Positions 1,751-9,994 are shown, numbered from the stretch's first letter. The stretch: 26,327 nt of DNA from a bacterium (GCA_037137535.1 JBAXKC010000034.1:1-26327), one strand, 5' to 3'. A program made the numbers and translations. Notes: generated by a model from the letters alone, not told the origin.

Positions 1751-2644
1751 TTAAAGATAACAAACCAATGAGTTTTCGGTAATACATTGTTCTCTGATTT
1801 TTCTAATTGCACGAATTTCAGTTTGTCTTATACATTCTTTTGTCACACCGTATAATTTGCCGATTTCATCAAGAGTTTGAATTCTAAAATTACTTAAACC
1901 ATATCTTCTTTTTAAAACTTCTCTTTCTCTATCTTTAAGTTTTATCAACATTTTTTCAAGATCTTTTTTTAAATGTTCAGCCTCAGTTTGCTCATCAGTT
2001 TTAGCGTTATAATCAACTAAAAACTCTGCGTAATTAATTTCACTTCCATCTTTTAATTCAATAGCAGCATCAATTGAAAATGATTTAATTAAGGCATTTC
2101 TGCAATTTTCAAGTTTATTTTTTTCAATATTAACCATTTCTGCAATTTGATCGTCAGAAAAAATAGAACTATGCTCTTTTTGCAAAGTTTCTTTTGCTTT
2201 TGATAATTTAGAGAGAGTTTCATATACATAAACAGGAATTTTTACGCTGTGCGACTGCTCGGAGATAGCTTTATTTATTGATTGTCTAATCCACCATGTT
2301 GCATAAGTGCTAAATTTATAACCATATTTATAATTATATTTTTCAGCTGCCGCAATTAGCCCTAAATTACCTTCTTGAATTAAATCAATAAATGGAAGGT
2401 TATTTTTAATATACTTTTTGGCAATGCTTATTACTAATCTTAAATTTCCTCTTATTAATTTTGTTTTTGCTGATAAATCACCATCAGCAATTTTTTTCCC
2501 TAATTCAATTTCTTCTTTGTGTGTTAATAATTGATATTTAGAAATTTGCTTTAAATAAGCCTTTACAGCGTCGTCCTGAAAAAAATTAGTGTCTTTAACT
2601 TCATTTGAGATAGCAGAATCAATTTTTTCACATTTTTCTAGCAT
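1751..2644 (-). CDS. RpoD/SigA-family sigma-70 factor lacking region 1.1 (group 2-like)
   Basis: Region 1.2 [17 protein letters not shown]; region 2 [34 protein letters not shown]; region 4 [20 protein letters not shown]. Shine-Dalgarno GAAGGAG upstream. Confidence 0.92.
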
Positions 2645-3415: not shown

Positions 3416-4210
3416 ATGGTAAATCATAAAGAAGATGAGGCTATTTTAACAAAACATATAATGAAACAATCTAATGTAAAAAATAAATATAAAATATTAT
3501 TAGTAGAAGATAATATTACAAACCAAAAATTAACAGCCAAAGTCTTAAATAATTGTGGTTATATTTGTGATATTGCAAATAATGGACGAGAAGCTATTAA
3601 TGCTTATAATGCTGTTAATTACGATTTAATTCTTATGGATTGTCAAATGCCTGTGATGGATGGGTATGAAGCAACAATGATAATAAGAGAGATGGAACAT
3701 AATGAAAAACATATTCCAATAATCGCAATGACAGCTAATGCTCTTGAAGGTGACGAAGAAAAATGCCTTATTTCTGGAATGGATGGATATATAACTAAAC
3801 CAATTAATCAGAAAACACTTATCTCTGAAATAGAAAAAGTTATAAATGATGAACTAGTTATAAATAAAGTCGAGTCAAATCCTCAAGATAAATATTTAAA
3901 AATATTACAAGTTATAGTAGACGGACATGAGTTCACTAATGAAGAAGCAGAAGAACTTTTAGCAGAATATATAAAGTCTCTGCTTGATATGACAATAACA
4001 ATTACAAATGCTATTAAAGAAAATAATTTTAAAGCAATTGCCGAGAAAGCTCATTCTTTAAAAGGCACTAGCGGAAATTTAAACATTAATGAACTTAGAG
4101 AGTCAGCCATTGAACTAGAAATAGCGGCTAAAGTTACTAATATAGAACTATGCAAAGAAGCTTGCGACAAAATAAGCATGTTTATTAAAAGTATAAATTA
4201 TAACAATTAA
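3416..4210 (+). CDS. Response regulator receiver + Hpt domain protein
   Basis: KILLVEDN, YDLILMDCQMPVMDG, IPIIAMTANA, MDGYITKP (hybrid-kinase-type receiver). Hpt motif KAHSLKGTSGNL. Start may be slightly downstream. Confidence 0.88.
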   Translation: MVNHKEDEAILTKHIMKQSNVKNKYKILLVEDNITNQKLTAKVLNNCGYICDIANNGREAINAYNAVNYDLILMDCQMPVMDGYEATMIIREMEHNEKHIPIIAMTANALEGDEEKCLISGMDGYITKPINQKTLISEIEKVINDELVINKVESNPQDKYLKILQVIVDGHEFTNEEAEELLAEYIKSLLDMTITITNAIKENNFKAIAEKAHSLKGTSGNLNINELRESAIELEIAAKVTNIELCKEACDKISMFIKSINYNN

Positions 4211-8376: not shown

Positions 8377-8736
8377 ATTAAATTCCAGATGTTTTTATTT
8401 ATAATTTTCATGACAATTTTAACATAAATAAATTTTGCCCTGTAAGTCTGTGCTTGTTTGGATATAAAAGATTAATCGTGAAATTAGTTTAATCTTCTTT
8501 ACTGAATTTCACTACATGTTCCAACATATTATTAAATCTCTATTTCTTAACTTTTTTCAAAATTCAGTAGTTAGTTTTCCTAAACGAGCTGATTTAGAAA
8601 GAATTTTAAAATAATTGTATAAATTCATCTTTGATTTTATTTTTGTTGATAATTAGGCATGTTTACAAGTATTTAGGTTTTTTTATGCTGCGGAATAATA
8701 AATTTTAAGAATTGTAAAATACTTTAAATAAAGTAC

Positions 8737-8763
8737 TAAAGTTTTTAATAAAGTTGCCGATAT
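8737..8763 (+). promoter_or_regulatory. Sigma-28 (FliA/SigD) promoter
   Basis: TAAAGTTT-N11-GCCGATAT, 15/16 match to the extended consensus TAAAGTTT-N11-GCCGATAA with exact spacing. Confidence 0.8.
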
Positions 8764-8769
8764 ATAAAT

Positions 8770-8848
8770 TATAAGACCAAACAAATGGTCATACCCCAAC
8801 CTCCTCCCCAAAGTCTGGTAGCCGCCCAAAAGGTGGCTTTTATTTTTT
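8770..8848 (+). ncRNA. Candidate small RNA (or terminated leader) with C-rich anti-SD loop
   Basis: 5' hairpin GACCA/TGGTC, then ATACCCCAACCTCCTCCCCAAAGTCTGGTA, then terminator. A GC-rich island in very AT-rich DNA directly after the sigma-28 promoter. Confidence 0.6.
8820..8848 (+). terminator. Intrinsic terminator
   Basis: AGCCGCC-CAAAA-GGTGGCT followed by TTTATTTTTT. Confidence 0.8.
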
Positions 8849-8902
8849 ATAGTATTGTATTATTGTAGTATTAATCTGTTTAGTGTTAGGTGTGTAGTTT
8901 AA

Positions 8903-9994
8903 TTGAATAATCTGATAGCTTTTGAAAAATTAAATTCAATTGTTGAGATTGAGATAAATAAGTACAATGAGCAAAATATACCATTTTGTTTCGTTGTGAT
9001 TGAGTTTTTAGAACATTGCGACAAATTATTTTCTAAAGATGAAATTATCAGTTTATTTGTTAATGATCTTGATAGTTCACTTCGACCAAATCTTGATTTT
9101 TATACAGTTGATAAATCGGGTAGAGTAATAATAATGTTTTCTGAAATTGATTTTATCGAGGTTCAGGAACATTTAGAAAAAATATATATTCTTATCAATG
9201 AAATTTTTGGTTCAGCAATTAATTTTTGTTTATCTTTGTTAAGTTATCCTGAAGATGCTTTTTCTTATAAAGATTTAATGTTAAAAGCAAATGTTCAACT
9301 ATTGCGGGAAAAAGAGAAAAAAATTACATTTTGTCAGGATATCAAGTCGCTAAATGAAATAAAAATTAAGAGTTTATTAAAAAGAGAAAATGTTGATGTT
9401 AATACATTAATATTTGAAAAAACTCAAAAACTGGTATGTTCTTTAAAGGAATATGACAATTACTTTTATGAACACTCTTCAATTGTTGCTAGAGGTTCTG
9501 TGCTGCTTGCAAAAGAGGCCGGCTTGCCATGGGCAGAAGTGGAAAACGTTGCAGTTGCTTCTTTATTGCATGATATTGGCTATTTAATGATACCTAAGAC
9601 TGTTTTTCAAAAACAAGGTGAATTATCTCAAGATGATTGGATTCAAGTAAAATTGCATCCGTTAATTGCGGTTAAAAAAATACTTGAACCAATGGAAATA
9701 TTTGGCGATTATTTACAGATAATATTAGGGCACCATGAATTTATTGATGGAACAGGTTATCCGTATGGTTTAAAGGGAGATAAAATAAAAGCAGGCTCTC
9801 AAATTATTTCCATATTAGATTCGTTCCATGCAATGAGTGTAGATCGACCATATAGAAAAGCCTTGCCAATTGATCAGATTTTAGATGTTTATATTAAAAA
9901 AGCAGGTATAAAGTGGAATAGTGAATTAATTACCACTTTTTGCGCAATGATTTGCGATGAAGATACCAGATTTAATATTTTAAACACATATTAA
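8903..9994 (+). CDS. HD-GYP phosphodiesterase with degenerate N-terminal GGDEF-like domain
   Basis: EHSSIVA, LLHDIG, KLHP, GHHEFIDGTGYPYGL, DSFHAMSVDRPYR. N-terminal half ends SYPEDAFSYKDLMLKA like a GGDEF fold but has no GGDEF motif. TTG start. Confidence 0.88.
   Translation: MNNLIAFEKLNSIVEIEINKYNEQNIPFCFVVIEFLEHCDKLFSKDEIISLFVNDLDSSLRPNLDFYTVDKSGRVIIMFSEIDFIEVQEHLEKIYILINEIFGSAINFCLSLLSYPEDAFSYKDLMLKANVQLLREKEKKITFCQDIKSLNEIKIKSLLKRENVDVNTLIFEKTQKLVCSLKEYDNYFYEHSSIVARGSVLLAKEAGLPWAEVENVAVASLLHDIGYLMIPKTVFQKQGELSQDDWIQVKLHPLIAVKKILEPMEIFGDYLQIILGHHEFIDGTGYPYGLKGDKIKAGSQIISILDSFHAMSVDRPYRKALPIDQILDVYIKKAGIKWNSELITTFCAMICDEDTRFNILNTY

Follow-up and report, generated by a model that had tools for sequence, protein, structure and literature searches.

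A predicted multi-copy small RNA family with a sigma-28-type promoter and a single-stranded, anti-Shine-Dalgarno-like core in a sister lineage of cyanobacteria

The window, which is the whole 26,327-nucleotide stretch of bacterial DNA analysed here, contains a compact unit without a credible ORF, whose neighbours are hisH and an HD-GYP gene. The sequence was re-read, and the promoter, the 5' hairpin, the C-rich segment and the terminator of the original prediction were all recovered at their positions. The features of the locus are listed below.

8737..8744, + strand: -35-like element TAAAGTTT of a sigma-28 (FliA)-type promoter, identified by sequence reading
8756..8763, + strand: -10-like element GCCGATAT of the sigma-28-type promoter, separated from the -35 element by an 11-nt spacer
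8771..8848, + strand: predicted sRNA transcript of about 76-78 nt, with the 5' end placed from the usual -10 distance and the 3' end in the T-run
8775..8790, + strand: 5' hairpin with arms GACCA (8775-8779) and TGGTC (8786-8790) and loop AACAAA, supported by the fold and by compensatory changes
8791..8819, + strand: unpaired C-rich core AUACCCCAACCUCCUCCCCAAAGUCUGGU, the presumed seed, from the MFE and centroid folds; near-invariant in homologues
8794-8809, + strand: C-rich stretch CCCCAACCTCCTCCCC, which holds CCCCAACCUCCUCCCC, identified by sequence reading
8800-8808, + strand: anti-Shine-Dalgarno-like motif CCUCCUCCC, inside the C-rich core
8820..8848, + strand: intrinsic terminator with stem AGCCGCC/GGTGGCT (8820-8838) and loop CAAAA, followed by TTTATTTTTT, from the terminator scan and the fold
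8903-9994, + strand: next ORF, the HD-GYP gene (Pfam HD_5; LLHDIG and DGTGYP motifs in the translation)

Two further genes of the window were noted: a sigma-70-family protein is encoded at 1751-2644 (- strand) and a response-regulator protein with an Hpt domain at 3416-4210 (+ strand). The sigma-70-family protein matched the FliA/WhiG model below the cut-off, with 77.5 bits.

The secondary structure of the unit was predicted from an 83-nt RNA. In the predicted fold (MFE -18.9 kcal/mol, z = -2.85), the C-rich part stays unpaired between two hairpins; an equally good fold was obtained in 1 of 200 shuffled sequences. The terminator scan recovered the stem at 8820-8838, at a density of 2 sites per 1.5 kb vs 0.5 expected. 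Our covariance model R1, which was built from 31 seed sequences with 11 pairs on a hand-anchored seed alignment, matched the window at 8768-8846 with 59.2 bits. The sole ATG frame within the RNA is not retained in homologues, whose linkers differ by 1-nt and other indels, and no credible ORF was found in the unit. These results agreed with the proposal that the unit is self-contained and non-coding; it spans about 76-78 nt, has a sigma-28-type promoter and an intrinsic terminator, and lacks a conserved ORF. Within the core, CCUCCUCCC is placed between two further C runs. The C-rich segment had been described as an exposed anti-Shine-Dalgarno-like loop that TACC/GGTA can close. The folds upheld the exposed state of the segment, but they did not uphold the closed loop: the UACC/GGUA helix is possible in the window copy, is not part of the predicted fold and is missing in several homologues, such as those with GGTCAAACAAACC. 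Because the helix is neither predicted nor generally present, the C-rich part is better described, on the folding models, as a single-stranded linker than as a loop.

The genome that contains the window (2.95 Mb in 81 contigs, 31% G+C) carries nine copies of the sRNA unit. Six copies are single, at C34:8730 (the window copy), C9:31669, C4:111060, C1:105685, C22:34962 and C8:7875, and the tandem copies are located at C4:50427, 50594 and 50755, at distances of 161-167 nt. In a search of the own genome, R1 recovered exactly nine copies with 54-60 bits, and the next best match reached 21 bits. The alignment of the nine copies revealed that the transcribed parts are near-identical and the promoter elements are kept, that the spacer is variable, and that the flanks are unrelated. 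This pattern is that of a multi-copy RNA gene in which every copy has a promoter and a terminator of its own.

Structural conservation was evaluated with R1, which was searched against 78 sources and gave 82 matches, of which 81 were distinct; the 11 modelled pairs were counted across them. Standard pairs filled 91.3% of the cells vs 75.8% in shuffles, and none of 500 shuffles came up to that level. Covariation scored 0.488 vs 0.199 in shuffles (reached by 0 of 500), and compensatory changes on both sides were found at 9 of the 11 pairs, comprising all five of the 5' hairpin and four of the six of the terminator, in counts that come from a model-fitted alignment and lean towards structure for that reason. 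The two outer modelled pairs of the terminator never varied. When the partner was slid by 1-3 columns as a control, pairing fell to 27-54%. An independent search on unaligned sequences found a 5' hairpin with 4 bp or more in 129 of the 137 sequences examined, and the stems comprised 44 different sequences; many of the 137 had been collected via the core pattern, so the invariance of the core is circular in that subset. The core was the same in the sets derived from BLAST and from the model, where variants such as AUCUCCUCCCC and CUCUUCCCC were few. The core of the homologues reads ACCUCCUCCCCAAGUC, and the invariant stretch spans 21-25 nt. RNAalifold on a plain MAFFT alignment returned only four terminator pairs with the 5' hairpin misaligned, which was resolved by the hand-anchored seed and the covariance model.

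The distribution of the unit was determined by three kinds of search. With the 77-nt RNA as a BLAST query, 32 of 41 genomes from the order gave homologues, including 23 of the 28 of good quality; at least one genome was matched in each of nine other sampled families. Each matched genome had 1 to 6 hits, and several hits formed tandem pairs. The order of the window is most likely Gastranaerophilales, a non-photosynthetic sister lineage of cyanobacteria. An exact-pattern scan of one genome per species yielded at least 118 stretches with the core, and among the 80 listed records nearly all were labelled Gastranaerophilales, Melainabacteria, Vampirovibrio or 'Cyanobacteria bacterium'; a few of the labels are evidently wrong. 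The class-wide and phylum-wide searches with R1 were run under strict filters, and 'no match' in them means not found in the genomes searched. In the class-wide sample, R1 matched 31 of the 32 genomes in family f3 and, in family f18 of a different order, 4 of 14 genomes; families f11-f17, f19 and f20 gave no match. In the phylum-wide sample, 49 of 50 f3 genomes were matched, and none of the 99 genomes from other classes. The f18 homologues keep the 5' hairpin, the terminator, a sigma-28-type promoter and CCCCAACCUCCUCCCCAAGUC, the part of the C-rich core that is conserved even in this second order. Homologues and paralogues with a conserved promoter and C-rich core, for which the original prediction had proposed a search, were thus recovered, with nine copies in the own genome by the covariance model and matches in 32 of 41 genomes by BLAST. 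The comparison confirmed the window unit as one of nine copies of a predicted sRNA gene family conserved across the order. Collectively, two covarying hairpins, a conserved promoter, nine copies and order-wide conservation indicate, at the level of sequence, a real RNA gene family.

The promoter of the unit follows the pattern TAAA-N15-GCCGATAA/T, which we take to be the FliA/SigD consensus. Among the nine own copies, CTAAAGTTT was kept in all nine -35 elements and GCCGATAA/T in seven of the -10 elements. The motif xAAAG (or close variants)-N13-17-CGWWW was present upstream of 67 of 82 homologue loci vs 1.8 in shuffles (maximum 5 in 200), and the strict form TAAAG-N13-17-CGAWA upstream of 41 of 82 vs 0.13 expected. 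TAAAGTTT was the commonest -35 form, at 27 of the 67 motif-bearing loci, and the 15 loci without the motif had mostly near variants. The end of the -10 element lay most often 5 nt ahead of the R1 match, and the 5' hairpin is therefore expected almost at the 5' end of the RNA. In the 2.95-Mb genome, the strict sigma-28 pattern occurred at 21 sites vs 1-3 in five shuffles, and 7 of the 21 sites were sRNA copies. The strict motif was also found upstream of 7 of 30 flagellin genes of relatives vs 0.3 expected (maximum 3). These results suggested that the sRNA promoter is likely of the sigma-28/FliA type.

The original prediction had presupposed fliA in the genome, and the gene (contig C23:27701-28375) was indeed found above the curated cut-off of TIGR02479, with 247 bits; it was above the cut-off in 37 of the 41 genomes of the order. 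Co-occurrence with fliA was rejected as support, being non-discriminating: fliA is near-universal in the class and the sRNA is not. A search with the Pfam model gave no match for FlgM. The genes behind the other 14 strict sigma-28 sites of the own genome are mostly non-flagellar, and the same holds for the genes behind relaxed motifs. Of seven own flagellin genes, one is preceded by the strict motif, and the other six have no strict motif within 260 nt. In families f13, f14 and f16, fliA is present and R1 gave no match under strict filters. All five f3 genomes tested (G002, G010, G034, G100 and G117; 99%-complete) possess the sRNA and a FliA-family sigma factor above the cut-off, and the same genomes gave no Flagellin_N match at E up to 0.001. 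FlgN was found in none of five f3 genomes searched, three of which are among those named. The unit had been called a flagellar-regulon sRNA; the sigma-28-type promoter in this description stands, and the flagellar label is too narrow, because the genes with the motif are mostly non-flagellar, because several fliA-bearing families have no R1 match, and because f3 genomes keep the sRNA without flagellin.

Several observations were made on sequences outside the transcribed unit. A motif TTAAG-N3-TGTAAA(A), at 8705-8719 in the window and about 20-30 nt upstream of the -35 element, is common to the nine copies and could be a regulator site or an UP-like element. TGTAAA or TTTACA occurred between -140 and -40 at 25 of 77 homologue loci, as a raw count without a control, and GTTTACA was also seen upstream of f18 homologues. 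At C8:58450-58900 of the own genome (G000), a series of at least three degenerate repeats, spaced about 85-90 nt, has CAAACAAATGGTCATACCCC in common with the sRNA, followed by different C-rich text. The repeats had no sigma-28 motif, no terminator and no R1 match; they may represent copies that have decayed, or another family of C-rich RNAs. A sigma-28-type motif was also present at a CpaB/RcpC-like gene (L169). In L219:1067-2754 (G000:C27:7113-8800), a 61-aa ORF lies behind the sigma-28-type motif TAAAGAAATTTAAGTTTTAACCGATAT; it has a G-x4-EY motif, which is typical of Flp-type pilins, and we read it, presumably, as such a pilin.

Public sequencing runs were searched with the 83-nt RNA by means of 5 sampled words; 2 of the 7 listed runs were positive, and 4 runs were inspected. 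X1, an RNA library from a freshwater metatranscriptome, and X2, a lake-water library that is probably DNA, contained only 8774-8831, with 58 nt identical. The respective contigs of 728 and 263 nt run past the RNA on both sides and are therefore uninformative on a short RNA. The promoter region (..GTCGATAAG..) and the terminator differ from those of the window unit, which makes this a relative's copy. No sRNA sequence was found in runs X3 and X6. The identical 58 nt in X1 and X2 suggested that close relatives of the sRNA also occur outside guts.

From the analysis as a whole, we consider it probable that the unit encodes a stand-alone, FliA-driven, trans-acting sRNA that pairs with G-rich ribosome binding sites. 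All nine copies are individually equipped with a sigma-28 (FliA)-type promoter and an intrinsic terminator, and they would be transcribed together when a FliA-family sigma factor is active. In the resulting RNA of about 76 nt, the 5' hairpin and the terminator hairpin would hold the C-rich segment of 25-30 nt single-stranded. The segment, which contains CCCCAACCUCCUCCCC, is complementary to G-rich, extended Shine-Dalgarno sequences (GGGGAGGAGG). The RNA would then pair in trans with a set of mRNAs at their G-rich ribosome binding sites and lower their translation, in the manner of cuckoo/CcsR, RsaE/RoxS and Yfr1.

Target prediction in the own genome performed no better than chance when controlled with reversed and shuffled seeds. 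In the genome-wide duplex scan, the best sites were the start sites of a 417-aa protein (C27) and a 189-aa protein (C1), both of no known family. We do not claim these two as targets: the best duplexes of the true seed had -36.2 and -35.3 kcal/mol, whereas the reversed seed reached -34.4 and two shuffled seeds reached -33.8 and -32.0. GGGGAGG at a ribosome binding site is rare in the genome and was found at 6 genes, which share no common theme: they encode an RTX-repeat protein, a LuxR-type regulator, a YbaB-family protein and three proteins of no known family. The 417-aa protein, one of the six, is rich in Pro, Gln and Asn and is encoded downstream of the pilin-like 61-aa ORF. Its homologues were found in 11 of 40 relatives, several of them with GGGGAGG- or GGGAGGG-type sites, as counted without a control; these G-rich sites are suggestive of targeting. 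The ribosome binding site of flgN (GGAGGTTGGGATG, a 10-nt complement) was rejected as a conserved target, since the match was not kept in 19 relatives. The 3' end of 16S rRNA was not found in the own assembly.

That no mRNA target rose above the controls would also suit a different reading, which we hold to be rather unlikely, namely that the invariant single-stranded segment has a protein or one particular RNA as its partner, such as a G-rich sRNA that it sponges, as has been proposed for Yfr1 and Yfr2, and not a range of ribosome binding sites. The invariant 21-25 nt (ACCUCCUCCCCAAGUC..) exceed a typical seed and are kept across two orders, multiple copies are suited to titration, and the conserved motifs of Yfr1 and Yfr2 show near-complementarity to one another in the available text of PMC6778093. 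However, no candidate partner emerged; the genome contains no long complementary stretch except the antisense strands of the sRNA genes themselves. In addition, the C-rich unpaired motifs of described families act on ribosome binding sites, according to the accessible part of PMC4615179.

The original prediction had further suggested that the unit doubles as a leader or attenuator of the downstream HD-GYP gene, so that sigma-28 read-through would couple motility to c-di-GMP breakdown. At the window copy, the terminator ends about 55-57 nt before the co-oriented HD_5 ORF with its HD and GYP motifs, and no strong sigma-70-like promoter was found between the unit and this gene. The other loci told against this idea. 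A convergent gene follows 8-64 nt away at 4 of 7 own loci, and a co-oriented downstream gene is present at only 2 of the 7, which are the window copy and the tandem array (238-aa ORF, 182 nt). At 93 homologue loci with enough flank, the next gene was convergent at 56, co-oriented at 23 and not in range at 14; none of the 19 complete co-oriented downstream ORFs had an HD or HD_5 domain. The neighbour in the gut family was prs (7 of 9 loci), the genes beside the other copies were varied, and the promoter and the terminator were conserved whatever the context. The HD-GYP neighbour is thus peculiar to the window copy, and the attenuating leader as a function of the family is very unlikely. Read-through into the HD-GYP gene may occur at the window copy, yet the family is not conserved for that role.

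The f3 loci (L199-L208, L215 and L217) have a single copy beside prs, the gene for ribose-phosphate pyrophosphokinase (7 of 9), either convergent to it or behind it. A small histidine-kinase gene was often observed on the other side of the sRNA at these loci.

The nine dispersed, near-identical and partly tandem copies in one genome, and the extra upstream motif TTAAG-N3-TGTAAA that they share, might instead suggest repetitive DNA that is not an RNA gene, for instance a miniature mobile element or a repeat bound by a protein. This reading is extremely improbable. The aligned flanks showed neither terminal inverted repeats nor target duplications, and conservation covers exactly the promoter together with the hairpin, the linker and the terminator. 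Two RNA helices are maintained by compensatory changes across 81 distinct sequences, and most gut-family genomes have one copy only, at a syntenic place.

Melainabacteria/Vampirovibrionia are largely uncultured, non-photosynthetic sisters of cyanobacteria that are common in animal guts and in water. In the titles and abstract openings of the literature outside subscription-only sources, no regulatory RNA was found described for these bacteria, and no paper containing the 13-letter core was found outside the subscription-only literature. The trans-acting sRNA family proposed here is kept throughout an order and beyond, has good covariation support and comes with a recognisable promoter; it may therefore serve as an entry point to post-transcriptional control in this group, and also to the role of the FliA-family sigma factor in lineages without flagellin. 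The model R1 can be used at once for annotating metagenome-assembled genomes and for finding the sRNA in metatranscriptomes.

The unit was compared with known RNA families. The whole window had no match in Rfam 15 at the gathering score. When the region 8400-9100 was searched at E up to 10, the only overlap was with BjrC1505, an alphaproteobacterial sRNA, at the chance level (18.2 bits vs a gathering score of 50, E = 0.62). A set of nine homologue loci was also searched at E up to 1, and no family overlapped the sRNA in any of them. The expectation that the RNA belongs to no described Rfam family was borne out in these searches.

The layout of the RNA resembles that of Yfr1, for which the available text of PMC2190773 describes two stem-loops around an unpaired, ultraconserved ACUCCUCACAC in an RNA of 54-69 nt. 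Both RNAs have a 5' stem-loop, an unpaired C/U-rich centre and a GC-rich 3' terminator hairpin, which are supported here by the fold and by covariation. They are similar in size, both motifs contain CUCCUC, and the hosts here form the sister class of those that carry Yfr1. However, several differences were found with respect to the account in PMC2190773. The undecanucleotide of Yfr1 is ACUCCUCACAC, whereas the sRNA has ACCUCCUCCCC; the unpaired part measures 16-20 nt in Yfr1 vs about 25-34 nt here; and Yfr1 sits between guaB and trxA, neither of which was seen at the annotated sRNA loci. Yfr1 is found throughout the photosynthetic cyanobacteria, whereas R1 had matches in 0 of 99 genomes of other classes under strict filters, and the sRNA is multi-copy. 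The exact Yfr1 undecamer is absent from the own genome, where the 10 one-mismatch matches are all in other contexts.

A shared origin would make the family the melainabacterial counterpart of Yfr1. Such an RNA would go back to the common ancestor of Cyanobacteria and Vampirovibrionia, would have been rewired to a FliA-family sigma factor and multiplied to as many as nine copies, and would act as a global anti-Shine-Dalgarno mimic that damps strong G-rich sites, also in gut lineages without flagellin. We regard this scenario as distinctly unlikely; the sRNA family nevertheless makes a deep link to Yfr1 testable.

The motif itself points to the cuckoo RNA family (CcsR/RSs0680 and the SmelC397/alpha-r14 group). 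These RNAs are alphaproteobacterial and have CCUCCUCCC in the loops of 2-4 hairpins, with up to 9 copies, in the part of PMC4615179 that is available. On the same account, the likeness is considerable. The exact motif CCUCCUCCC is unpaired in both and is present in nearly all homologues here, the stems vary by compensatory changes while the motif is fixed, the copies are multiple and partly clustered, with up to 9 in both, and the presumed action in both is occlusion of the ribosome binding site (PMC4615179). The architecture differs: cuckoo RNAs are described with 2-4 adjacent hairpins and the motif in each loop (PMC4615179), whereas the sRNA has one motif, between two hairpins, and the loops of its two covarying hairpins are without it. 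The hosts also differ, being alphaproteobacterial in one case and, among the genomes searched, one class of the window's phylum in the other, where the sRNA has a sigma-28-type promoter. The family would thus provide an independent case of a recurring design, in which an anti-Shine-Dalgarno-like C-rich motif is kept single-stranded in an RNA of several copies.

With regard to the promoter, the nearest described RNAs are FliA-dependent sRNAs. Campylobacter jejuni has FlmR (CJnc170/CjNC4) and its paralogue CJnc10 (CjNC1), as given in the accessible text of PMC4626219 and PMC11187230. E. coli has UhpU, MotR, FliX and FlgO, four sigma-28-dependent sRNAs that are derived from UTRs, as given in that of PMC10578931. 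The FliA-type promoter would place the sRNA at the bottom of the flagellar cascade, as with these RNAs (PMC4626219, PMC11187230, PMC10578931). The Campylobacter sRNAs also occur as paralogous copies and are thought to feed back by base pairing (PMC4626219, PMC11187230). FlmR, which was compared with the sRNA by description only, is 47 nt long in the available text of PMC11187230. A further difference is that the family described here persists in genomes without flagellin, its dependence on FliA being deduced from the promoter motif.

Taken together, since a defining feature of Yfr1 and one of the cuckoo RNAs are missing from it, the sRNA is best regarded as a new family that would act like either of them. 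Judged by the available text of the sources, its closest counterpart by design is Yfr1, by motif and copy number it is the cuckoo family, and by promoter it is FlmR/CJnc170 and the E. coli sRNAs.
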